In this document: positions 37,247-63,903 of the stretch, piece after piece | How positions within the stretch are numbered: the stretch's first letter is position 1 | How the letters are laid out: each line of letters opens with the position of its first letter | Origin: a virus | Lineage: Duplodnaviria > Caudoviricetes | Strand: one strand, 5' to 3' | Virus record (IMG/VR): IMGVR_UViG_3300028805_000070 | Coordinates: 69,083 to 133,082 of that record | DNA: 64,000 nucleotides | Notes under the pieces: model-generated | The model's database searches: none | What the model was told of the DNA's origin: nothing | Seen by the model: only the letters and a program-made list of their open reading frames with translations | Position numbers and translations under genes: made by a program

Positions 37247-38092
37247 TTACAGTTGAATTACTTCAATTTCTTCCACTCTATTATTTTTTTCATTATATAC
37301 AAATCCTTGTGCTTCCAATGTTAAGCAATTCAATACATACAACCTATTAGTATTGGCAGTCCCCACATCCATATCAATTTTCGCGCCTGTAAGTCTTTCA
37401 TCTAAATTCCCGACATATTTGCATGGATGTGCTTTACTTAAACTTTTATCTTTCCCATAATACTTTGCGGGTAAGTGCGGTGTTGGAGTATGCCCATATA
37501 CACATATACGATTTGGCGCCCATCCATATCCGAGCATATTTCTATCCCATAGAAGGAGTTCAGCATCTTCTCTATCTGGGATATCACCATTATACTCATC
37601 TTCTGCGACCCGATTAAAGACTTTAGGAATTGTACCTGCATGGCAAAAGTCGATTGTATCTGTGCTAAAAGTAAGCGGTAGCTTATCAATTTGGCTTACG
37701 AAATCATTAGGCATTCCCGCGGCCATCCAAGCCGCTAACGTAGGAAAGCCGCCATTATAGATGCAGTTGATAATCTGAGATACGCAGTTATCCTTTATAG
37801 CTAAAGAATAAAGGTAATTTTTAATAACTTGCTCATCCATCGGCCCATGATAGTCATTCAAAATAAAGCGCGCAGCCGCGACAAACATATCTTCATGATT
37901 ACCTTTCAAATAAACAATTTGCGGATTCTCCAAAAGCTCGCGCATTATTTTATATCCATCAGGCCCACGGTCACATGCATCGCCAAGATACAAAATAAGA
38001 CCTTCCGGATCTTGTTTATAGCAGTAATCTATTGCAGCCTTATATAAATTATAATAGCCATGTACATCAGTAAAACAAAATATGTCGTGCAT
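37247..38092 (-). CDS. Metallophosphoesterase (Ser/Thr phosphatase-like)
   Basis: TDVHG, LGDACDRG, KGNHE, CHAG, YGHTP. Confidence 0.88.
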   Translation of the reverse strand: MHDIFCFTDVHGYYNLYKAAIDYCYKQDPEGLILYLGDACDRGPDGYKIMRELLENPQIVYLKGNHEDMFVAAARFILNDYHGPMDEQVIKNYLYSLAIKDNCVSQIINCIYNGGFPTLAAWMAAGMPNDFVSQIDKLPLTFSTDTIDFCHAGTIPKVFNRVAEDEYNGDIPDREDAELLLWDRNMLGYGWAPNRICVYGHTPTPHLPAKYYGKDKSLSKAHPCKYVGNLDERLTGAKIDMDVGTANTNRLYVLNCLTLEAQGFVYNEKNNRVEEIEVIQL

Positions 38093-39343: not shown

Positions 39344-40570
39344 TTATCCATGATACTTCAGCAAGAAGCTGTTGCTTACCGCCTTAAAAGACTTAGTACC
39401 ATCAGTAGAGCGGAATACAATTCCTTCGCGCGGCTTTCCGTCCTTTACAGAGTTGCCATCAGCATATGCAAGGATAGCATCTACATTTTCAAACTGATTA
39501 ATTTTCATACAAGCTTCAAGTACAGGTACACAAGGCACGTTGTATTCTGCAAGAATCTTTGACATCTCTAGAGTACCGACACGGCCCTTAGAAGAAAAAA
39601 TTAGATTAAAGGCGGCAAAATCATGTTCGGTTAGAGAATAGTCACGCCGCTGCACCCCATCACCATAGGTTTCACCCTGAATAGTGATCCATTCTTCTTG
39701 CGGATACTTTTTAAGCATCTCGGAAAGTACGCTAAAAATATTATATTTCTTTGCCATTTCCCAATATACGTTGGTATCATAGTAACAGGGCTTATTTTCT
39801 TCGCCAAAACAAACATTACGTGAACATACATAGAAATTCTTTTTACCGAACTTACCGCGTTTCATAGTGAAAGTAGTGCTAGTACCATCAATCTTCTCAG
39901 TAGCTACCCAGTCACCAGAATCTTCCAGGATCCAAGGCATATTCTGTACACGTTCTTCATCAGTCTTGGAAACCCAAGAAGGCCATCCATTCTTCTTATC
40001 TTTCTTCTTCCCAAAGAAGAAAAACATAATCTTACGGCCCCACTCACGACGCATCATCCAACGCGCCCAAGGCTTTTTAAACAGAGAAGCATGACGCTGC
40101 GCCATTTTCTTATACTTATCTACCGGCGCGGCCTTACGGGCATTATCCTCATCATCTGCATAAGTTACTCCCAGTTTCTTAGTCAGGAAGCGAGATTCAT
40201 CAGTTACATAATGAGGTTTGCCTTCATCATCAATAATTACGGAATGATCATCCATAGCACTATTTTCAGTAGTCCAACCAAAATCAGACGGATGCATAAG
40301 CAAACCCTGAGAAATAGTTTTGCACATCTTCAAAGTCTTAACTTTGTAGTTACGCTTTTCCAGAAAAGCAAAGCACTCCTTATCAGAGGGGACACGAGAA
40401 TCAATTTCGAAATAAATAGCAGGATCGCCGACCTTAAACTGATCTTTCTGTACAATTACGCGCCAACCACCAACGATAGCGTGTTCTACACGGTCATAGC
40501 CAGGAATTGGTTCAATACCATCAATCAGGACTACATAGGCAAGTTCACGTTCTTGATTCTTATTCAGCAT
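39344..40570 (-). CDS. ATP-dependent RNA ligase (DRB0094/Rnl2-like with N-terminal OB domain)
   Basis: YFEIDS, SQGLL, KTDEERVQN, TEKIDGTS, QGE, REGIV, SFKAVSN. Confidence 0.88.
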   Translation of the reverse strand: MLNKNQERELAYVVLIDGIEPIPGYDRVEHAIVGGWRVIVQKDQFKVGDPAIYFEIDSRVPSDKECFAFLEKRNYKVKTLKMCKTISQGLLMHPSDFGWTTENSAMDDHSVIIDDEGKPHYVTDESRFLTKKLGVTYADDEDNARKAAPVDKYKKMAQRHASLFKKPWARWMMRREWGRKIMFFFFGKKKDKKNGWPSWVSKTDEERVQNMPWILEDSGDWVATEKIDGTSTTFTMKRGKFGKKNFYVCSRNVCFGEENKPCYYDTNVYWEMAKKYNIFSVLSEMLKKYPQEEWITIQGETYGDGVQRRDYSLTEHDFAAFNLIFSSKGRVGTLEMSKILAEYNVPCVPVLEACMKINQFENVDAILAYADGNSVKDGKPREGIVFRSTDGTKSFKAVSNSFLLKYHG

Positions 40571-43790: not shown

Positions 43791-44552
43791 TTATAGAATA
43801 TATTTAAGGTAAAACTGCATGAGTTCTTTTTGAAAGTCCTCGATGAGCTTTAAACCTTTTTCTTGTACATTTGCTTTGAACTCGCTGAGTTCAAACTCTT
43901 CTTTTCGTTTATCTAATAGATTAGCAATAATGTCGCATTGCGCATTATAATAATTTTCCAAAGTATCGCTCTGGTCACGTTTAGCATTATACGCTTCCTC
44001 ATAATCTCGCGGCAAAAGCTCAAGTAAATGAGTGACATCAAGACTTTCTGTAAAAACATCCATCATACTATATAGCCGCAGAGCGTGAGAAAAGCGCTTC
44101 CCAGCGGGCATATTGCGCTTAGAAAGCTGATGTGCCATACCAGCCATCGCGTATAGCATATGGCCATAATTACAATGAGCCATATAATTCAGGCAAAACT
44201 GGTCTTCTAGGTACTTCTTTACAATTGACGCATAAGTGGGCTCATAATAACGATACTTGCCCACAAAGCATTCAACGCTATTGGGAGAAGTCTTTTTGAG
44301 AAGATTAAGCGCAAGACGAATGTCTTTATACATACATTTGCCATCTTCTACTTCAAACTCCCCGCTCTTAGGTTCGCGTGCGAACGCTAAATCTTCGGCG
44401 CTAGGAAGAATAAAGGTAAATGTATCAACATCGCTATTTGCATTATTTAATTTATAATTCTGCGAGCCAATTAGCACTGTAAAAACAGGCTCATATCCCT
44501 GTTCTTTTACTTTCATATGATGTGCATAAACATCAGTAAGAATACTCATCAT
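43791..44552 (-). CDS. Nucleotidyltransferase (Pol-beta superfamily)
   Basis: GSQNY.L....SDVD motif; HALRL. Confidence 0.75.
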   Translation of the reverse strand: MMSILTDVYAHHMKVKEQGYEPVFTVLIGSQNYKLNNANSDVDTFTFILPSAEDLAFAREPKSGEFEVEDGKCMYKDIRLALNLLKKTSPNSVECFVGKYRYYEPTYASIVKKYLEDQFCLNYMAHCNYGHMLYAMAGMAHQLSKRNMPAGKRFSHALRLYSMMDVFTESLDVTHLLELLPRDYEEAYNAKRDQSDTLENYYNAQCDIIANLLDKRKEEFELSEFKANVQEKGLKLIEDFQKELMQFYLKYIL

Positions 44553-44634
44553 GTCACTCCCTTTCTTTATATATTATATCAGAAAATAGAAAAAAAGTCA
44601 AGCATTTGATTGCTTGACTTTAAGAAGATTGAAT

Positions 44635-46110
44635 TTATCTAATACTAGAAATTGGCGCATAGCGCTCGCTTTCTAGTACATCCAGCATCATTTCGATTCC
44701 ATCCTTCCCAGAAAGCACACCTTCAAGCGCACTCATAGAGAAGCCGCTGCAATAGGAGAAACCAGGGCCAATTGCAGGAATGTTATTCTGGCGGGCGTCA
44801 AGGTTCCAGAAAATAACGCGAGGAGCAGTATAGCCATAAGACTTCCATTCCCGCATTTTTCTCTCGATAAGAGTATCAATCTGCGAGCGATTCATCGTAC
44901 GGATACGGCTTACATCGCAAGTCAAACCCCTATCGAATTCCATATCACTAAAGATATAAATCGTCTTGGGCATTTCAGCATTGGGCACATGATTACGCAG
45001 GCCAGTTTCCAGCAGCATATCAAACACCGCTTCAAGGTTGGTATTCATTCCCCAATCGGCATCAATAGCACGAGTAAACTTGTCATAAATATCAACACCT
45101 TCAAACTCTACGAGCTGCGGACGGGCGCTGAAAGTAATAAAGTGGTTATGGAACGGTCCCTTGCCGCGTTCTGCAATATAAGCGCCCATAGAAACCGCGG
45201 CTTCCATAGGAGTACCAGTCATACTGCCGCTTACATCGACCACGGCAATTCCGGGCTCTTCGCGCCCATGGTAATAATCCTTTAGATTATCCCAATATTT
45301 CTGCCAAGCCTGGCGCTCCGTACTAGAAGGCTTATTCCACCGTGCATTTAGAATCTGGTGTGCAATTTCTACGGGGTTCAGGACATTAGCATTTACCTTA
45401 GTCTTAGTGTCAGACATAAATGCAGCATAGCGCTCTTTGGTTTCTTCACGGCGCATAAAGGCATTCTTGTAAAGAAGCCCTGCGCGAGAAGGGAGCTTAT
45501 CAAAGGCAATCTGGTCCCACTGGTTCTGACTCATTAGAGTTTCAACCAAGTGGCAAGCCTTACGGCCCTCTGTAAGCATCTTACGATACTCACGAGAAGT
45601 CATACCAAAAGTCTGACGAGTCTTTAGCGCAATGCGCTTAGACTCTTTAGAAGAGCAGTTCTCACTCTTAAGCCACTTATATACAAGATGGTCATCATTA
45701 TGGAAAACCATATTGTGCAAATACTGGAACAGCATCTCCTCGCAAGGAGTGTTTTCAAGCACATAAAGGTCATCATAACGCCCATAGGTAGGAACAGAAG
45801 GAATCAGATGTTCTGCTTCCTCCGGAAAGTGCTGAGCTAGCCACTTTAGACAGACGCGGAAAAATCTACGTTCACCTGCGCCGCCGCGTACGTCACGCAG
45901 ATAGAACAGACATTTCAGCGCCAGAGTAGCATCCTCTTCATACGCTGACTTAAACATATTAATTACGTCCTCGTCAGAACGATTACGCATAGAGCCACCC
46001 ATAGCAAACATGTCTAGCACTTTGTTTAGAGTAGACTTATGGGTAATAGCACCGTTCTCAGTACGAGTATAGTTGGTTTCCTTCTTCATTGCCTTTAGAA
46101 ATTCGTTCAT
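44635..46110 (-). CDS. TROVE/Ro60-like protein with C-terminal vWA domain (DUF2828-like)
   Basis: TENGA, LFYLRDVRGGAGER helical region; MIDAS DVSGSM, NTNLEAVF, IFSDMEFD, IFWNL, SGFS. Confidence 0.75.
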   Translation of the reverse strand: MNEFLKAMKKETNYTRTENGAITHKSTLNKVLDMFAMGGSMRNRSDEDVINMFKSAYEEDATLALKCLFYLRDVRGGAGERRFFRVCLKWLAQHFPEEAEHLIPSVPTYGRYDDLYVLENTPCEEMLFQYLHNMVFHNDDHLVYKWLKSENCSSKESKRIALKTRQTFGMTSREYRKMLTEGRKACHLVETLMSQNQWDQIAFDKLPSRAGLLYKNAFMRREETKERYAAFMSDTKTKVNANVLNPVEIAHQILNARWNKPSSTERQAWQKYWDNLKDYYHGREEPGIAVVDVSGSMTGTPMEAAVSMGAYIAERGKGPFHNHFITFSARPQLVEFEGVDIYDKFTRAIDADWGMNTNLEAVFDMLLETGLRNHVPNAEMPKTIYIFSDMEFDRGLTCDVSRIRTMNRSQIDTLIERKMREWKSYGYTAPRVIFWNLDARQNNIPAIGPGFSYCSGFSMSALEGVLSGKDGIEMMLDVLESERYAPISSIR

Positions 46111-46243
46111 TTTCATTCTCCTTTTCATCTTGACCGTTGTCACGGTTGTGGGATTGATGATAGCCGCATGATTCTATACACTCGAAACAGGGGCTACCAA
46201 TTAAGCATCTTTTGTCTTCTAACATAATTATTATAATCCAATT

Positions 46244-46828
46244 TTAAGAAAAAGTCAAATAATTACCATTTCTTTCCTCTATCCTTTTATTTCTAATGTC
46301 TTCTTTAATTTGTTCTAAGTTCACAGGATAACAATTATGTGCATCCATCTCTACATGATAGCACATTTTGTCCCAATCGGCCCATTTATCCTGAGTATGA
46401 GAATGGCCACACAAATTCGCTACTCGGCGCCATTCTTCATGATTGCAAGTAAGTGTCGGATAGTGCGAGAGATAAAAACTCCACTTTCCAGATTTAATTA
46501 CCGTGGCATAGGAGCTCTCCATTCCCGCAAGAAGGGAGATATTAGGGCAAGTTTCAAGAATACGAGTAACTCGATTAACTGTACAATGATTACCTCTAAG
46601 CCAAATCTGATGTCCCTTTAAACGCTGAATATAAGGAATTGCTGCTTCGGTATCCGAGAGCGTGATGTCTCCCAGATTATAAATAACATCATCGTTGCTC
46701 ACAACCGAATTCCATCGTTCCACAATTGCTTCGCACATTTCTTCTGTGGATTCAAAGCCACGTGGGCGCCAAAGAAAATCTTTGCTATGCATCAGATGTA
46801 AATCTGAAGTTAGCCAGATTTCTCCCAT
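46244..46828 (-). CDS. Calcineurin-like phosphoesterase
   Basis: SDLH, LGD, RGNH, SHYP, GHSH. Confidence 0.85.
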   Translation of the reverse strand: MGEIWLTSDLHLMHSKDFLWRPRGFESTEEMCEAIVERWNSVVSNDDVIYNLGDITLSDTEAAIPYIQRLKGHQIWLRGNHCTVNRVTRILETCPNISLLAGMESSYATVIKSGKWSFYLSHYPTLTCNHEEWRRVANLCGHSHTQDKWADWDKMCYHVEMDAHNCYPVNLEQIKEDIRNKRIEERNGNYLTFS

Positions 46829-46830
46829 TA

Positions 46831-47310
46831 TTATGACACCTCCATTATATTAATAGCTCGTTCATCTTCATCAAGTGAGGGTGCTTTAAAATCTTTACAC
46901 ATATTACGAATTACGGCTTCAGGAACATTAGCCCTGCCCGTACGCTTAGCATTATGTTCAATACATACATCTACATTTACATTAAAACTAACATAAACAA
47001 TTTCATAATCTTTAAAGTACATATCAATTGCGTGCGTAAGTTTACGACGCGAAAACTCATTCAGATGAGTAGCATCAGCAATTACATCAAACCCATCTAC
47101 TAGAGTCTGAGTTAAGTAGCCAGTAAAGCGCCGAAAGACTTCTTTTTCGCGCGAAAAATACTCTTTATTTGGGTCGATAAGTTCAAAACGAATTTCATCC
47201 CGAGATACGTAACGAATATCATCAGTATCACGATGCTCTTTAATAAAATTTGCTGCCCAGGTAGTTTTACCGCATCCACTCGGTCCACAAAGAATATAAA
47301 GTTTAGGCAT
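46831..47310 (-). CDS. Polynucleotide kinase (T4 Pnk kinase-like, AAA_33)
   Basis: CGPSGCGKTT, SRDEIR, DATHL, VPEAVI. Confidence 0.8.
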   Translation of the reverse strand: MPKLYILCGPSGCGKTTWAANFIKEHRDTDDIRYVSRDEIRFELIDPNKEYFSREKEVFRRFTGYLTQTLVDGFDVIADATHLNEFSRRKLTHAIDMYFKDYEIVYVSFNVNVDVCIEHNAKRTGRANVPEAVIRNMCKDFKAPSLDEDERAINIMEVS

Positions 47311-47900
47311 CTTTATCCTCCCATAATAAACAAGTATGCTCTTTAGGTAGCGGGCCGCCATATTCACATCCATGATGTGTATTATATTTATCTGACATGT
47401 CGAGACAGCGCTTACATGCGAAACAATCTCGATTTTCTTTCCACTCTTTCTGCCACTTTTCAATTAAATCATTATTATCATCTTCATCAAAGAGACTTTT
47501 AAATGTACTAATCATTTCATCTCTCCTTTATGTTCATTCGTATATTTTTTCGGTAATTTTCCATTACGCTTCTCCATCTCTCATGCGCCAATAACGCATA
47601 AATTTATATTTAATAGGACTAATTCTATAAAGGTCCCATGAATATTCTCTATTACAATTAGGGCAGGGCCCAGTTCTATTTGTACTAGGAATTACATCTA
47701 TATGAAGTAAAAAAATTGCGTTGCAATAAGGACACTCGCATGGAATTACTTTCGGCTTATTTGGTCTAATAATACCACTAAAGGCTTCTTCACGCTTTAC
47801 TTTCATTTTACCCTTTCCCTTCCTTTCATAAAAATTATACTATAATTTTTAAAAAAAGTCAAATAAAAAATAGGCGGTAATTTTACTTACCGCCGATTAT

Positions 47901-51499: not shown

Positions 51500-51571
51500 A
51501 GGTTCCAGTGAGAGTCGAACTCACTAACGTGGATTTTGCAGACACATACCCGACCGACGAGCATTGGAACC
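51500..51571 (-). tRNA. tRNA-Cys(GCA)
   Basis: Loop CTGCAAA, U73; atypical D arm. Confidence 0.75.
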
Positions 51572-51725: not shown

Positions 51726-51796
51726 TGGAGATACGGGGTGACGCTCCCCGGCCTGAAGCTTGCAAAGCTACTGTTCTACTGTTATACTATATTCCC
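51726..51796 (-). tRNA. tRNA-Ala(TGC)
   Basis: G3:U70, loop TTTGCAA. Confidence 0.8.
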
Positions 51797-52192: not shown

Positions 52193-52660
52193 TTATTTTC
52201 CCTTATTTTTACCTGCATAGGTTTCAGTCTGTGAATGACAATTAGGACATAAAAATCTAAGATTTTCTAATCTATTATCTCGGTTATTACCATTTTTATG
52301 ATCTAGCTGTAAACTAATAGGTTTATTTAACCATTCAGTAATACCACAGATAGCACATTTATAATCTAATAATTTAGCATCAAGTAATCTATTTTTTAAA
52401 TGTGTTGTAGAAGCATATGTAGAATTTTCTACTAATATATCATCTAAACTACGCTTTATGCCCTAATTACCTATACTTTTACCACGATTAAAATGTTTGG
52501 TAGAACATTCTAATTCTTGAATTCGTCTTTTTAGAACATCGGTAGAAGAACCGCCATTTGTACCTAAACCCAATGCTCTTAAACAATCTGAATAACTAAA
52601 ACTGTTAGCGACGATTGTTTTAAACTCTTCATCAGAAACCTAATAAATTTTACTTTTCAT
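52193..52660 (-). CDS. HNH endonuclease (2 in-frame TAG)
   Basis: CAICG...LQLDHKNGNNRDNRLENLRFLCPNCHS; paralog of 53820-54281. Confidence 0.85.
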
Positions 52661-52746
52661 ATTAATCACTCCTATGATTATATAAAATAGAGCCGGTGTA
52701 GGAGCACCTTATACTCATTAGAGAGCGACTCTAATGCTACCTCAAG

Positions 52747-53819: not shown

Positions 53820-54281
53820 TTATTTCATATCTACTCTTCCAGCGCCTTTAGAATAAGTAGGTAATTGCCTATCACAATTTGGGCACACCCATCTTAAATT
53901 TTCTAATCTGTCATCATGATGTTTACCATTAATATGATCTAACGTCAAAACTAATGGTTTGCCATTCCATTCTGGCGGTAATCCACAAATAGCACATTTA
54001 TATTCTGTATAATGTCCTCGCTCATACCATCTGCGTAAAACACTTTGATTAGCGGTAGAATTTTCAACAAAAATATTTTCTGGAGTTCTTATTGTTGCTT
54101 CTTTAGTATAAAAATGACTAGTATCAATTCCATATTTTTCTATACGGTTACGCACTGTTTTATAACCCGTACCGCCATCAGAACTATAACCTAATTTTAA
54201 TGCTAAATCTCGCCAACAATTAGATTGCTTAACCTTTTCGGTTAATTCTTCAATACTAAATTGATCTACTAATGCTTTCAT
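53820..54281 (-). CDS. HNH endonuclease
   Basis: CAICG...LDHINGKHHDDRLENLRWVCPNC. Confidence 0.88.
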   Translation of the reverse strand: MKALVDQFSIEELTEKVKQSNCWRDLALKLGYSSDGGTGYKTVRNRIEKYGIDTSHFYTKEATIRTPENIFVENSTANQSVLRRWYERGHYTEYKCAICGLPPEWNGKPLVLTLDHINGKHHDDRLENLRWVCPNCDRQLPTYSKGAGRVDMK

Positions 54282-54732: not shown

Positions 54733-54805
54733 TGCGCCATGAGGGACTCGAACCCACAACTCCAGCATTAAGAGTGCCGTACTCTACCAATTGAATTAAT
54801 GGCGC
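54733..54805 (-). tRNA. tRNA-Lys(CTT)
   Basis: CGGCA-CTCTTAA-TGCTG. Confidence 0.9.
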
Positions 54806-55236
54806 AAATTTTCTAATTGTTTATTAAATTCATAATCAGTGGCAAAACGAATACCTTTGGTTTGACCATTTTTACTTGGAACTAATCTTAAAGTTAATTC
54901 TTGTCTAAATGTTCCATCTTCATCACCAAAATACAATCCACACCAATTATTTTCTTGACAGTATAAAAAGAACATATCAATTTCTTCTTTTGTATATTTA
55001 TTACTACTCCAGTTCCCTTTTACATAATTTGTAGTTTTGGTGGCAAATACCATTGCTGCCGCGTCTTTAATTGATGTAGTAGTTTTTACTTGTACACGAT
55101 ATAGTTTATTATCAATTTCAACAATCAAATCATATCGTGCATTGTTACTAAAAGGTTTTGATACAATGCAATCTGCCTGTGTAAATTTAGTAATAGCCAT
55201 AACTTCTCCTAAATCACCAACACTTACAGTATTCAT
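54796..55236 (-). CDS. PD-(D/E)XK endonuclease (group I intron-associated type)
   Basis: GDLGE, RYDLIV, RVQVKT, YTKEEIDMF. Confidence 0.8.
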   Translation of the reverse strand: MNTVSVGDLGEVMAITKFTQADCIVSKPFSNNARYDLIVEIDNKLYRVQVKTTTSIKDAAAMVFATKTTNYVKGNWSSNKYTKEEIDMFFLYCQENNWCGLYFGDEDGTFRQELTLRLVPSKNGQTKGIRFATDYEFNKQLENLRH

Positions 55237-57403: not shown

Positions 57404-58150
57404 TTATATTTTCTCCCAATCTTCATCAGAATAAGAATTAATTTCTTTCTTAGTTCTTGGCAATTGTAATTTATCACACCACTTTCTTACCGTATTACCA
57501 TCTACATTAAAATTACGTCCTAATTGTTCAAATGAGATATTTCTAATCATATTTTTTAATTCATCTCGTGCTGGTAATTCAACTTTTGTTTGATGCTTTA
57601 ATGCACATTCTTTACAACGTTTTGCACCTTTAGTAATTTTTTTCCCACATTCAATACAATAGCTATGAATTTCAGTAGTATGTATTGTTTTATTATTTAT
57701 CTGTACTATTTGTATTGGACCATTCATTTGCTGTACTATTTTACTTAATTCATAATCTCTTGCGGGTGTAATATTTTTAGTACTACCTTGTAAAGTTATA
57801 TCACTAAGATATAAGCTTTTTTGAGTCTCACCACAAATTTCTACTGGAACTAAATATGAAGTACCATTGAAATAAGTATAAAAATAATCAATTTCATCTG
57901 TAGTATATGTATGCTCTAATACTTCTTTTGTATTTCCTCGTATACTGGTTGTTTTAAATGAAATACTTGTTCCATATTCATTTAATAAACTAGTTTTACA
58001 TTGTATACGTTTTAACTGTCCTCCAATATCAGCAATATAATCATAACGACAATCATGTGATATTGGTTTACTCAACATAATACCCAATTCAGTAAAAGCT
58101 AATTGACAATAAGTTTCAGTTATAAGTCCTTTTTGATTAGTTTCATTCAT
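57404..58150 (-). CDS. PD-(D/E)XK endonuclease with Zn finger and HTH
   Basis: KGLITE, RYDYIAD, RIQCKT, YTTDEIDYF, CIECG..RCKEC, HTH. Confidence 0.8.
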   Translation of the reverse strand: MNETNQKGLITETYCQLAFTELGIMLSKPISHDCRYDYIADIGGQLKRIQCKTSLLNEYGTSISFKTTSIRGNTKEVLEHTYTTDEIDYFYTYFNGTSYLVPVEICGETQKSLYLSDITLQGSTKNITPARDYELSKIVQQMNGPIQIVQINNKTIHTTEIHSYCIECGKKITKGAKRCKECALKHQTKVELPARDELKNMIRNISFEQLGRNFNVDGNTVRKWCDKLQLPRTKKEINSYSDEDWEKI

Positions 58151-58827: not shown

Positions 58828-59272
58828 TTGCGCTCTAGAAACGCCGGTTTTGTTGTCGGGAACCATCACTCTCTTTATATACCGCAAGTTACCGGCGGTT
58901 CTTGATTTCGGGGAACTTCCCCTGCGGCCAAGAGAAGCCTTATCTACGGCGCGGAGTGGTATCCGGCGTAGGGGAGGACCCGGGCCTTACAGCCAGCCCT
59001 AATGGTAGTTTTTCCTCATACTGGAGATTGCTAAGGAAAATGCAACTAGTACTCAGCGCCATTCTCGACGCTGACATTTACCTTTCATACAAAGCGTGTA
59101 CTCATTAAGCACACACCCACGGCTTTTGTTTTAGCTCCCATCTTATAAAAGCCGTAAAACCGGAGCACAACTAGTTCCGACATTTATAACGCGCACATCT
59201 CAGTTGTCAGCAATTGCGCGGGCGAAGGGTCTATTTTTTACTTGCTTACTACCATCGTCCATTAAAGCGCAA
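58828..59272 (-). ncRNA. Large structured RNA B (AGAACCGC...GCGGTATATAA family)
   Basis: 10-bp terminal helix TTGCGCTTTA/TAGAGCGCAA; long-range pairs CCGGTTTT/AAAACCGG and GGGAGCTA/TGGTTCCC. Confidence 0.6.
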
Positions 59273-59561: not shown

Positions 59562-60179
59562 TTATTCTTCTATATAATATTTCCATTTGTATCCACCAGA
59601 AGTTTTGTTAGGATTTTTACACGCTTTGGAAATATTACTATGATCTCCTTTTATTGCTTTAGCAGCAGCGGATACAGAAGGAAAAATTTGTATAATCTCA
59701 TTAGTATTTATATCTATTTGTGCAACAGGTCTGGCTTTATATTTATTATTCTAATTAGTATTTAATTTAGATTGCTTTATGGCAGTTTGAACTGTTTCTT
59801 TTGCACAATGATATTTTCGAGCAATGGCTAAAATTCCCATTCCAGATAAAAAATCATCAATAAATAAATCATAATTATATAATTGTTTTCCATCACCGCC
59901 ATGAGTAGCATTATATCCATTATGAAATGTATTTAATTCATTAATCCAATATTTTTCTCGTTCTTCTAATATAGATAATTCACATTTTTCAAGCTATGAA
60001 ACTGAGAAATGTTCAATTCCATATTTATTCATAGCATCATATAAAGGTCGTTTTTCACATCGAGAGCGTGTAGAATCTTTTATATGCTCTCTAAACCTTT
60101 TTTCTATAGTGTCAGTGGTTTTTCCTACATACTATTTCCCATTAATATCATTTGTAATACAATAAATAAAACCTGTCAT
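59562..60179 (-). CDS. GIY-YIG/NUMOD1 homing endonuclease (3 in-frame TAG)
   Basis: GFIYCITNDINGK*YVGKT...RF.EH...EREKYWI...GYNAT.GGDG...FPSVSAAA...GGYKW. Confidence 0.88.
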
Positions 60180-60274
60180 AATAATTCCTCCTATGAATTA
60201 AAATTGTGGCCGGTAATAGGAGTACCTTAATCTCGTTGGTCATGACTCCAACGCTACCCAAAATATAAAATATA

Positions 60275-60393
60275 CAAGACACACTTTAACCGCGCTTCTG
60301 CCAATTGAGCGACCTCCCATCAGCTGGGAGGGTTGGAGTCGAACCAACACTTGACGGGCTCCCTAAGCAAAGAAAATAATGCTGATGTGTCTT
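60275..60393 (-). ncRNA. CAGCA-stem RNA 6: YrlA-like Y RNA with circularly permuted tRNA domain
   Basis: AAGACACAT-CAGCAT...T arm GTTGG-TTCGACT-CCAAC, closed acceptor CCTCCCA-GCTGA-TGGGAGG, D arm GCTCAATTGGCAGAAGC...GTGTGTCTTG. Confidence 0.8.
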
Positions 60394-60398
60394 TAAAG

Positions 60399-60469
60399 CG
60401 GCCCCTGAGAGAATCGGACTCCCATCAAGCGGTTAACAGCCGCCCGCTTTACCATTAAGCTAAGGGGCC
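60399..60469 (-). tRNA. tRNA-Asn(GTT)
   Basis: GGCGG-CTGTTAA-CCGCT. Confidence 0.9.
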
Positions 60470-60560
60470 AAATATTGCCTACCCAAAGTTCCTCAAATGA
60501 GGCGGAACAGGCGGCTAATAGTGTTCCTTATGATGGCTCAGGCGGGATACCCTTGCCGAG

Positions 60561-60633
60561 TGGCACAGACAAGAATCGAACTTGCATTTGTTGGGTATGA
60601 GCCAACTGTCCTAAGCCTTTAGACGACCGTGCG
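60561..60633 (-). tRNA. tRNA-Met(CAT), initiator-like 1:72 mismatch
   Basis: GTTGG-CTCATAC-CCAAC; C1 unpaired. Confidence 0.8.
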
Positions 60634-60731
60634 ATATAAAAAGGTCAACTTGTAGCTATCAAGCTGACCGAGGTAATCCTAGCTACAGAAACCATACCAT
60701 AAGCGCACCTTCTGCCGAGTCGCCAATACGC

Positions 60732-60918
60732 GGCGACCCGCTGGACTTGAACCAGTTCTCTATGTATAGGCTGTCCCTCTTCTCAGATTGGCCCTGAGAT
60801 ACGGCCGCAACTTTTTTAAACACGTACAGTTGCTGGTACAATCGCGATACCCTCAGAGGATTTGAACCTTCATCTCCGCCACTGGCGTTGTTTTCTCCAA
60901 CTTAAACTATCTTTGGGC
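60732..60918 (-). pseudogene. Two degenerate tRNA-like elements (60732-60808 and 60848-60918)
   Basis: T arms (CTGG-TTCAAGT-CCAG; GAAGGTTCAAATCCTC) and acceptor-like ends but no canonical anticodon arm. Confidence 0.45.
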
Positions 60919-60924
60919 ATATAA

Positions 60925-61760
60925 GGAGCTTGATATCCGAGCCTCCCAACCTCGGTCATATGATACCGCCGATTCAGAGTAGGCAGCGAGTTTCCCGACT
61001 TGCTCTGACAAATCTGTTGGTTCCTCATATCATATGAAAGACTACCAAGCTAGTAGCAGTTTGCTCTTGCTTGTAGACACCGGCTTATTTTATATACCGC
61101 GGACGGTGCGCGGCACCTTTTTTTTACGTGGGTTATGTATCCACGGAGGTTGCTCGTCGCAACCCGCTTCATAGAGCGGCCTCGATTTTTTATCCTCGGT
61201 CTCTCCGAGACCAACGGCCTACTCCGGGCTTACTCCGGTATTCCGATGCGCTTCGTTTGGTGTCTTATGCGCGTTTCAGGCTTGCAATCCTGCGAGAGCA
61301 TCCGACGTCCGGCTCTCCTGCCGGTCGGCAGCTTCCCTCCCATCGGTTCTTCAGCCAAATACCAATTCATCGACTGGACTACTAATGTTTATACTCGTAA
61401 GCTCTACCGAGTGTTCCGGCCTACACATTGTGACGAGGAGTGGGCGGCGAAGAACGCGGTTCTTCTAATCCACTTACTTTGTTCTAGGTAGCTACTCCTA
61501 GCCAAACGGAGCCTTCTCCATATTTCTCTCGTTTTTCAGCCGTTAAGTTTTCCGCCTAAGCGAGGATAACTTATAACCCATACGCGTACTATGTTTGCAC
61601 TGCCATCTCGCTGCGTTGCATAACAGATGAATCTTCTGCGACCTAGCCGGCTCCTTTTGATGTTCTCGGACATCTGCGTGTGGGGAGTCTAGATATACCT
61701 TCTCACTTAACCGCTCAACTGCATCTTTTACTTGCACCAGTGAGAGGCAAGCCCATTATA
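60925..61760 (-). ncRNA. Large structured RNA C of about 800 nt (AGAACCGC...GCGGTATATAA family; ROOL/GOLLD size class)
   Basis: No credible ORF, GC-rich, many hairpins; motif at 61456-61463 and 61090-61100; boundaries approximate. Confidence 0.55.
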
Positions 61761-61765
61761 TGGGA

Positions 61766-61824
61766 CTAGGCGCATCAATATTATATTACCCTCTAATATA
61801 TATAAATATTGCTGTAAGCGCCTA
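61766..61824 (-). ncRNA. CAGCA-stem RNA 7
   Basis: TAGGCGCTT-ACAGCAA...GCGCCTAG. Confidence 0.7.
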
Positions 61825-61827
61825 TAG

Positions 61828-61948
61828 TCCGCCACCCTGGACTCGAACCAGGGACACACGGCTTATTGGTGGAGCCCAAGAGTGCTGCCCTCTCGTAAAG
61901 CCTAGCAAGCCCCAAGGCCGCCGCTCTAACCGACTGAGCTAGTGGCGG
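61828..61948 (-). tRNA. tRNA-Ile(TAT) interrupted in the anticodon by a 47-nt mini-tRNA-like insert (61867-61913)
   Basis: Canonical acceptor, D and T arms; GCGGC-CTT[insert]ATAA-GCCGT. Confidence 0.8.
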
Positions 61949-62567
61949 ATAAAATCAGCAGTGCAAGCAGTCATCTTACCAAGCGCGGCATCGCCATCCG
62001 AGCGGCGTGCCCAGTTGACTAAACTGGGAAGCAAGTCACCGCTTGAGGATTTGAACCTCTACACTACGTTCCTACCCTTTCAACATATTTATTATAACAT
62101 AATTTTTATTGAAAGTCAAATATTAGTCAAGGAAATTTTCAACCAGATTTTCCGTAGAGTAACCAATGCTTTCGATAAAGCGCGCAAAGGCATCGCACAC
62201 ATCGGGCAACTTGATACCAGATTCATTTGAAATAGTTATTTCTACGTCTTCCGTGGGTATCTCGCTATCCTTATCTTCATCTTCAAAAGTATACCAGAAT
62301 CTAATCGTTTCCATCTCTTTCCCTTCCTTTCGTAAATATTATACCTTAATTTTCCTCTTTTGTCAAGTAATCGTTTTCCAAATCTTCAATAGACCAATCT
62401 TCATCTTCAAGTTCTTCCCAAGAGAAATTCATAATGAAATCATCTAGCATCAATTTCGCCCCTTTCTCTTCCTTACAAACATATTATAACAAAAATTCAA
62501 TTAAAAGTCAAATAAAAAACTCCGTATATTTCAGAAACTAATTGCGTTAGCCTGATAGGGATACGGA

Positions 62568-62812
62568 GGTGCGGCCGCGGGTTCGCAACTCCCCGACCAC
62601 GGGCGATGTATGGCGTCGCCTTGCCCGCAATATAACGTGTTGTGACTACGCTCCTATTTAACATCGGGGAGATAGATGAGTATTTTTACGGAATACTAAA
62701 TTCGTTGCTATATTACTATAGTAGCCTAACACCGGCTCTCATACATCTGTCATCCTAGGCTGACTTAACGGGGTAATGACTCCCGGGTAGCATACGTGCT
62801 TGCCTGCGCACC
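62568..62812 (-). ncRNA. Candidate structured ncRNA of about 245 nt
   Basis: Terminal helix GGTGCG/CGCACC, GC-rich, downstream of tRNA-Gly, followed by a terminator-like hairpin 62520-62568. Confidence 0.4.
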
Positions 62813-62848
62813 CATTCTTTTCGCGATAGGTGAATGAGAGAAACCCAG

Positions 62849-62919
62849 AGCGCCATACCCGAATCGGACGGGCATTAGATGCTTGGAAGGCACCTGTGTT
62901 ACCTTTACACCAATGGCGC
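62849..62919 (-). tRNA. tRNA-Gly(TCC)
   Basis: GGTGC-CTTCCAA-GCATC, U73. Confidence 0.88.
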
Positions 62920-63903
62920 AATATATTCATCTATCCAATCATAAATAGTCATATATTCTATGAATGGATATTGTTCCGCAGTCATATTACGAATTAAAGT
63001 ATACTCAACTTTATTAGAAGTAAGAATACTTTTTAATTCTTTAATATCTATTTCTAGATAAGAAAGAAAGATTGGAATATAAGGCTACAAAGTTTCTTTC
63101 ATTTTCGTCTTCAATATCTCTTTTTCTTCGTCATTGTTGGCCGTTTGAGAATAAAAATAGAATGATAAAAGGTCGTGCATTCCCATATCATATATCGTAT
63201 ACATTTGCGCGCCTGTTAATGATTCGTGTTGAATCATTTGTACTATTGGAACAAACGTACTTTGAATAGTATCAGATATTACTGCACAATGATAGGTTTC
63301 CTATTGAGATATTGATCCTTTTGACTTAACCCAAATATAAAAACTTTCTTCCCAGATATTAGGTTCTATATTATTTTTAATACAAGTTAAAATAATTTTA
63401 CGTGTAAAATTAATATCTTCGCTATAAATTAATTTATCATAATTGATATTATTTTTTCTTAAAAAAGAAAGCTCAAAAAATTTACCGTGCGTATAAATAT
63501 CCATAGGAGTATATGATACTGATTCATCATCATTAGAATGATGCTCTACTCCCGTATATAGGGTATTCTAAATATGATTTTTAATTATATATTCACGTAC
63601 TTTATCAAAGGTATAATCACAAAAATAGTCATCTTGATCCTAAAAACATATCCATTCGCCTTGTACTTCTTCTAATCCGTGCTGACGACCTGGCCGCGGG
63701 AATCCATAATGCTTATCATTTTGGATTACTCTAATATGAAGCATAGGGAATTGCGCCAAAACATCATCAAATGGTTCAGTAGAGATATCGTCTGATATGA
63801 TAACTTCAATATCGTCTATACACTTATTTGTAGCGATAGCCTAAAGCGCGGCTGGGAGATACTTGTTAGGATTATAAGTCGGTATAATAATTGAGAAGAA
63901 CAT
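62905..63903 (-). CDS. Glycosyltransferase family 2 (5 in-frame TAG)
   Basis: FSIIIPTYN, IISDD.S, GEWICF*DQDD (DxD), SEDINF; TAA at 62905. Confidence 0.85.

Follow-up and report, generated by a model that had tools for sequence, protein, structure and literature searches.

A 47-nucleotide tRNA-shaped insert between positions 34 and 35 of a phage tRNA-Ile(UAU) gene: conserved architecture and a tentative route of removal

The DNA analysed here (the window, 64,000 nucleotides) forms the end of an IMG/VR virus record of 133 kb that is 75% complete and originates from sheep gut or rumen. The window has a G+C content of 38%, and no close relative of the region was found among GenBank phages. More than 20 tRNA genes, located with ARAGORN and Rfam, are arrayed on its minus strand between 49.4 and 63 kb. 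Interspersed among them on the same strand are five free-standing homing-endonuclease-like genes (two HNH, two PD-(D/E)XK_5 and one GIY-YIG with NUMOD1) at 52193-52669, 53820-54281, 54796-55236, 57404-58150 and 59562-60179; to judge by their families, they could mobilise neighbouring DNA, the interrupted tRNA gene described below included.

That gene lies at 61828-61948 (minus strand). Its alignment to the Rfam tRNA model is full-length (positions 1-71, 50.9 bits, E 1.4e-8), with approximately 50 nt extruded from the anticodon loop, in agreement with an earlier note on this DNA, in which the same sequence had been read as a split tRNA with canonical arms. The tRNA body has the acceptor stem CCGCCAC/GTGGCGG followed by A73, normal D and T arms, and the anticodon stem GCGGC/GCCGT; the anticodon loop is CTT[47 nt]ATAA, and CCA is not encoded after A73. 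The 5' exon (61914-61948, minus strand), delimited by the Rfam alignment, the sequence and ARAGORN, contains tRNA nucleotides 1-34 in 35 bases on account of a long D loop and ends with C32-U33-U34. The 3' exon (61828-61866, minus strand), delimited in the same way, runs from A35-U36-A37-A38 to the discriminator A73. When the insert between them (61867-61913, minus strand) is removed, ARAGORN assigns the remaining 74 nt to tRNA-Ile(tat) and draws them in canonical form.

Two comparisons fix the position of the insert. A scan with the pattern of the anticodon arm returned 34 uninterrupted phage tRNAs with an identical arm and the loop CTTATAA, all of them with the anticodon TAT; their acceptor stems are diverse, and the CCGCCAC acceptor of the window gene occurs in none of them. 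The second comparison is with orthologous interrupted genes, which together with the window gene number four and have in common the upstream sequence TTTATCC, the tRNA body, the CTT that precedes the insert and the sequence CCA-ATAA across its 3' boundary; CTT|ATAA is the sole cut common to all four. Uninterrupted homologues and interrupted orthologues thus place the junction at 34/35 (U34|A35) without positional ambiguity. The earlier assignment of a CUU|AUAA junction and Ile(UAU) identity stands, and the comparison shows that the exons, once joined, would be a normal member of a widespread phage tRNA(UAU) family.

The three other interrupted Ile genes (L003 and L002, and later L062) were found by a gapped pattern scan of IMG/VR and lie on viral contigs from other metagenomes, with a related insert at the same site. 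The search of related phages for which the earlier note had called thus finds interrupted genes at this position. The orthologous gene harbours two lineages of insert, one represented by the window and L003, the other by L002 and L062. The exons are near-identical across these four diverged phages; the inserts differ widely, and their pairing is kept by compensatory change. Inserts with the architecture of the window copy also occur in other tRNA genes: in tRNA-Glu(UUC) at 35/36 (L038) and in tRNA-Lys(UUU) at 36/37 (L069). Both tRNA-Glu(UUC) gene copies of the complete 184-kb phage concerned (G001) contain the insert, the second copy (L074) being identical to the first. The near-identity of the L038 and L069 inserts, located as they are in different tRNAs, argues that such elements may move between tRNA genes. 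A scan for the window type of insert elsewhere found only L003. Scan matches L005-L007 were discarded as chance matches or ordinary tRNAs, as were most of the metagenome-scan matches L009-L027; the exception, L020, is a copy of L003.

Read 5' to 3' along the minus strand, the insert comprises the 5' strand of an acceptor-like stem, GGGGCTT (61907-61913); a 12-nt linker with GG that resembles a stemless D loop (61895-61906); a T-arm-like hairpin with the 5-bp stem GAGAG/CTCTT and the 7-nt loop GGCAGCA (61878-61894); the 3' strand of the acceptor-like stem, GGGCTCC (61871-61877); and an ACCA tail (61867-61870) directly before the 3' exon. The stems are assigned by covariation, the linker by comparison of six inserts. 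All six (the four in Ile genes together with L038 and L069) have the same layout in 44-47 nt: a 7-nt strand, a 9-12-nt linker, a 5-bp/7-nt hairpin, a partner strand that follows without a spacer, and NCCA. The acceptor-like stem has 7 bp in five of them and 6 bp in L003; the linker contains GG or GGG in five and GA in L003; the tail is ACCA in five and GCCA in L062; the base preceding the insert is U in every case. Pairs were counted by script in a hand-made register of the six inserts, MAFFT not having yielded an in-register alignment. In this register 70 of the 72 stem cells pair and 10 of the 12 pairs covary with compensation; shuffling the 3' partners 5000 times never gave as many as 70 pairs (mean 44.3, s.d. 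3.5). The fold of the insert is beyond chance, and the minihelix recognised in the earlier note (a 7-bp acceptor, a T arm, a stemless D loop and an NCCA tail) is a conserved, covarying structure of all six inserts.

Folding energy is a less discriminating guide for the window copy. The nested fold of the precursor is calculated at -42.9 kcal/mol against a minimum of -51.1 kcal/mol (z -0.77), and the insert folded alone has a z of -0.7, so that the nested fold is not favoured on energetic grounds; in L003, L002, L062 and L069 the insert is predicted to have its minimum energy as the minihelix. In L002, L062, L038 and L069 the inner arm is CGCAG-TTCAACT-CTGCG, with a loop that fits the T-loop consensus; ten ordinary phage tRNAs with CCA ends, returned by the same scan, have precisely this sequence as their T arm. 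The loops of the window insert and of L003 (GGCAGCG) lie outside the consensus. The CCA of the insert is not a simple habit of this genome, since only 3 of 21 window tRNA genes encode CCA. Bacterial RNase P prefers substrates with a 12-bp acceptor/T stack, U at -1 and a 3' NCCA, and the predicted fold has these traits in all six inserts.

The acceptor-like end of the window insert has G1-C72, G2-C71, G3:U70, G4-C69, A73 and CCA, a combination that in E. coli is known as the acceptor set for alanine. Elsewhere the pair at 3:70 is A-U (L003), U-A (L002 and L062), G-C (L038) or C-G (L069): G3:U70 is present in one of the six inserts, NCCA in all of them. Alanine identity, to which the earlier note had drawn attention, is therefore not a conserved property of the element, the G3:U70 of the window copy being absent from the five others. 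A resemblance to tmRNA had also been proposed. The insert and the tRNA-like domain of tmRNA do share an acceptor stem and T arm with a stemless D loop, but tmRNA also has a tag reading frame and pseudoknots, and the insert has neither. ARAGORN detected no tmRNA in the window, and the likeness is not conserved; the suggested connection to tmRNA and SmpB is unsupported.

The tRNA introns generally recognised in bacteria and their phages are of the self-splicing, group I type alone. Group I introns are more than 200 nt long and self-splice by virtue of a P1-P9 catalytic core. At 47 nt and with no match to Intron_gpI, the insert is not one of these, and a search of it against the Rfam intron and ribozyme families returned nothing even at E values up to 10. 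The intron of tRNA-Leu(UAA) in cyanobacteria and plastids likewise interrupts a bacterial-type tRNA at 34/35, but is a self-splicing group I intron of more than 200 nt, whereas the window insert is 47 nt long and matches no Rfam intron. With the bulge-helix-bulge introns of archaea and eukaryotes (EndA/Sen with RtcB/Trl1), the insert has in common that it is short, that it lies in the anticodon loop, that the tRNA body holds the exons and that a ligase is needed. It differs from them in lacking the bulge-helix-bulge motif, the 37/38 position and EndA/RtcB, and in its bacterial-phage setting. The motif consists of two 3-nt bulges with a 4-bp helix between them at the splice sites. By inspection, one of the four central bulge-helix-bulge pairs forms around the 34/35 junction and two of four around 37/38. 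Neither RtcB nor a tRNA splicing endonuclease (EndA, PF01974) was found in the 133-kb, 75%-complete phage record, and a CCA-adding enzyme was not found there either. The earlier judgement that the insert is too short for group I and has no bulge-helix-bulge is thus borne out. If an insert that is incapable of self-splicing at 47 nt and has no bulge-helix-bulge is removed, a protein or RNP route for its removal must exist.

Conservation of the insert suggests that it may indeed be removed, and it is probably a genuine intron, excised from the RNA, of a tRNA-shaped class. Its design recalls MALAT1 mascRNA, the t-elements of plant mitochondria and mitochondrial tRNA punctuation, in each of which a tRNA-shaped module in a longer transcript recruits RNase P and RNase Z. 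The flanks in those systems stay unjoined, whereas the predicted cleavage here would make rejoining obligatory. The architecture, its compensatory conservation and the exact exon junction are established by the comparisons above. What best explains them as a whole, the route included, is a tRNA-Ile(UAU) intron that is cut by tRNA end-processing enzymes and sealed by the phage's own ligase; this explanation leads the field and is put forward tentatively. The end-processing enzymes that cut the precursor would take the insert for a tRNA. RNase P would cleave immediately before the first base of the insert, so that the 5' exon would end in U34 with a 3'-OH; an endonuclease that acts on tRNA 3' ends would cut right after the CCA of the insert, leaving a 5'-phosphate on the 3' exon; the tRNA body would hold the exons, and an ATP-dependent phage RNA ligase would seal them.

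The candidate sealing enzyme is encoded at 39344-40570 (minus strand), where the earlier note had placed an RNA ligase gene; Pfam domains and a match to a PDB entry bear that placement out. The reading frame has PF21189 (OB) at residues 11-92 and PF09414 (nucleotidyltransferase) at residues 220-398, the domains expected of Rnl5, and matches the Naegleria RNA ligase in PDB entry 5cot with an E value of 1.8e-30, which identifies it as NgrRnl/Rnl5-like. The Naegleria enzyme is ATP-dependent and joins a 3'-OH to a 5'-phosphate. Since these are exactly the ends that such a ligase needs, the RNase P route would have no kinase step; the Pnk that the earlier note had enlisted is dispensable, because cuts of the RNase P and RNase Z types leave 3'-OH and 5'-phosphate. 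In favour of this route are the T arm in four of the inserts, which is that of genuine CCA-ended tRNAs, the NgrRnl-like ligase, and the lack of RtcB and EndA in the record. Its weak points are the 3' cut, the preference of the ligase for duplex nicks, the atypical loop of the window copy, and the occurrence of an insert without CCA (L075, described below). A bacterial enzyme that makes a cut exactly behind an encoded CCA is not generally known, and CCA acts as an anti-determinant that inhibits RNase Z in several bacteria; ligases of the NgrRnl type have been characterised on duplex nicks, not on loops.

Co-occurrence of inserts with Rnl genes was assessed in 17 further viral records reached via the loci, by setting tRNA matches longer than 100 nt against the presence of an Rnl gene. 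Among records at least 89% complete, an Rnl gene is present in all three that have such a match (G001, G002 and G004, by PF09414 or PF09511) and in one of the eight that lack it (G013; Fisher p ~0.02, one-sided). The long matches in G002 and G004, and those in G009 and G012, are other kinds of insert, not minihelices; G009 and G012 are incomplete records that have an insert and no Rnl gene in the part recovered. In a sample that is small and heterogeneous and mixes kinds of insert, the co-occurrence is suggestive only.

The main rival to the RNase P route accepts the intron as genuine and has a dedicated endoribonuclease, of phage or host origin, read the minihelix and leave a 2',3'-cyclic phosphate and a 5'-OH. 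A kinase and a phosphoesterase would then heal the ends and the ligase would seal them, in the manner of T4 Pnkp/Rnl1. Genes for such enzymes are at hand. A P-loop kinase (AAA_33, a candidate polynucleotide kinase) is encoded at 46831-47463 and, beside it, a metallophosphoesterase that is a candidate 3'-end healing enzyme at 46244-46828 (both on the minus strand and assigned by Pfam, and both with a part in this scheme only); a second metallophosphoesterase, also a Pfam assignment, lies at 37247-38092. These three, a weak RlaP-like nucleotidyltransferase and the ligase fall within about 10 kb. Healing and sealing would also avoid the need for an enzyme that cuts just after CCA, and would accommodate the L075 insert, which has no CCA tail. 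The precedent is close in part: T4 likewise combines a kinase/phosphatase with an ATP-dependent RNA ligase at a break beside the wobble base, but it mends damage by a host nuclease and uses Rnl1, whereas the window phage has an NgrRnl/Rnl5-like ligase for which intron removal is proposed. Against the scheme, no candidate nuclease was found, EndA and RtcB being absent from the record and the nucleases of the tRNA array belonging to DNA homing-endonuclease families (HNH, GIY-YIG, PD-(D/E)XK); the faithful mimicry of acceptor stem, T arm and NCCA is left unexplained; and the repair genes are explained equally well by defence against host anticodon nucleases. Removal of the insert by this path is unlikely, if the least unlikely of the alternatives. 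Also in this part of the window (43791-46143, minus strand), a gene for a 502-aa DUF2828/DUF7788 protein adjoins that for the RlaP-like enzyme; with the genes for the ligase, kinase and phosphoesterase nearby, these two have the look of a gene neighbourhood for RNA repair.

It is less probable still that the insert stays where it is, either as a selfish or degenerate insertion that has killed the tRNA gene or as part of a locus that yields only a tRNA-like RNA and tRNA halves. Two sheep-gut metatranscriptome runs cover most of the region; contig depth over window positions 60000-63500 is very uneven, from 9 to about 740, as expected of RNA and not of contaminating DNA. The gene is present in its unspliced form in a 1312-nt RNA-library contig at a depth of 335, which speaks for an unremoved insert. 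The phage also possesses tRNA-Ile(GAU) and two tRNAs with CAU anticodons, and the region is rich in homing-endonuclease genes. Another contig, from RNA run X3 and found when the likeness threshold was lowered to 90, joins 61866 to 61914, the exact predicted junction, at a depth of 2.01 and with a shorter side of 28 nt; the exact junction occurs in no DNA contig. These 28 nt extend from T8 to U34; other phages, L030 among them, have the same stretch unchanged in their uninterrupted tRNA-Ile(UAU) genes, and the contig stops where the window gene's own acceptor stem starts. Being explained equally well by the uninterrupted tRNA of another phage, this contig is not counted as evidence of splicing. 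What argues against an unremoved insert is that the exons are intact in four diverged phages, and that their inserts keep pairing by compensation, which makes a dead gene less likely. The joined exons would, moreover, match the tRNA(UAU) family perfectly; ATA accounts for 14.3 of every thousand codons when the record's long reading frames are counted; and G001 has an insert of this kind in both of its tRNA-Glu(UUC) copies.

That the gene is instead tRNA-Pro(UGG), interrupted at the canonical 37/38 site by an intron of 47 nt and spliced through a bulge-helix-bulge in archaeal/eukaryal fashion, is next to impossible. ARAGORN, when introns are allowed, does call Pro(tgg) i(38,47), and the split tRNA has C1-G72 and A73, which are typical of bacterial tRNA-Pro. 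Both features are found in many of the 34 uninterrupted TAT tRNAs as well, and for that reason are no argument for proline here. The orthologous inserts of L002 and L062 start with C, so that a cut at 37/38 would give orthologous genes differing anticodons, and the 34 uninterrupted homologues have TAT; on these two grounds the ARAGORN call was rejected. The bulge-helix-bulge pairs are unformed around either junction, no splicing endonuclease was found in the record, and promoter, Shine-Dalgarno sequences and gene content resemble those of a bacterial phage. Nor need an assembly artefact that misjoined two tRNA-like pieces, the chimera against which the earlier note had warned, be seriously entertained: a 1700-nt DNA contig (X1) and the 1312-nt RNA-library contig (run X3), independent of each other, cross the locus without any difference, homologous interrupted genes are present in other metagenomes, and nothing in favour of an artefact was found.

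Inserts of this general kind have been seen before. Devoto et al. (2019, Nat Microbiol, PMC6784885) reported tRNA introns in Lak megaphages, one of which 'may encode a tRNA', and termed them enigmatic; a 2026 survey (PMC13037316) noted of the tRNA introns in recoded jumbo phages that they 'could encode another tRNA'. Like the window insert, these introns are short, lie in the anticodon loop and are not classifiable as self-splicing, and their phages resemble the window phage in having alleles with and without inserts, in coming from gut or rumen, and in apparent TAG recoding. The window phage differs from Lak in being smaller (a 133-kb record, 75% complete), in its sheep rumen source, in having the intron in Ile(UAU) at 34/35, and in the minimal, 47-nt size of its minihelix. 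As far as sequence and predicted fold can tell, the window insert is one of the tRNA-shaped, 'enigmatic' phage tRNA introns of the Lak type. The two papers contain no structure statistics, mechanism or RNA data on the introns, and full-text literature searches turned up no publication in which a mechanism for them is put forward or tested. Of the 'undescribed' splicing route claimed in the earlier note, the novelty of the intron kind is accordingly lost and that of the mechanism retained. The window locus adds a junction fixed by 34 uninterrupted homologues, a pair of insert lineages sharing one site in orthologous genes, and a clear answer against alanine identity as a property of the element.

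If removal by RNase P, a CCA-measuring nuclease and the phage ligase were confirmed, a mini-tRNA intron would represent a third kind of tRNA splicing in bacterial viruses, one that needs neither self-splicing nor a splicing endonuclease, a proposal more tentative than the explanation of the window locus itself. AUA decoding in the window phage would then depend on the phage's own ligase, and the case would show that phages make a tRNA conditional on their own enzymes. A 47-nt CCA-ended minihelix would also be released, which in the window copy, with its full alanine set, could be charged by AlaRS. The locus makes a convenient test case: its insert is minimal, four orthologues serve as natural compensatory mutants, there is a single candidate ligase, and metatranscriptomes containing the window phage exist.

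Other interrupted tRNA genes came to light in the course of the scans. In L075 (63-192, minus strand; record G010, 79842-79971) a 130-nt tRNA, probably Gln(UUG), contains an insert of about 60 nt. This insert combines a 7-bp acceptor-like stem and a T-arm-like hairpin with a further, palindromic hairpin in its linker, and has no CCA tail. A different kind of insert, a hairpin followed by ACAGCAA, occurs in anticodon loops of other phages (L050, 6768-6886, minus strand; L056, 12852-13358, minus strand). Within the window, a closing stem with ACAGCAA just inside recurs in eight free-standing elements; one (61766-61824, minus strand) lies directly 3' of the split tRNA, and the others are at seven more sites. 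CAGCA is also found within the insert loop GGCAGCA, a putative tie to these elements.

TAG is apparently a sense codon in part of the genome (whole record, G000). If TAG is read through, the record's longest reading frame grows from 1321 to 4758 aa; the GIY-YIG/NUMOD1 gene at 59562-60179 (minus strand) needs three read-throughs for a full Pfam match, and a gene for a family-2 glycosyltransferase at 62905-63903 (minus strand) needs five. The record, 75% complete, yielded no suppressor tRNA with a CUA anticodon. Two low-scoring tRNAs for which ARAGORN makes no call lie at 51726-51796 (minus strand; anticodon UGC, G3:U70, an odd T loop AGCGUCA, 39.4 bits) and at 51500-51571 (minus strand; anticodon GCA, 29.5 bits). 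Inside the tRNA array, at 58973-59117 (minus strand), is a full-length match to the cow-rumen-3 RNA (RF03083), which at 115 bits stands well above the Rfam gathering score of 86.7.
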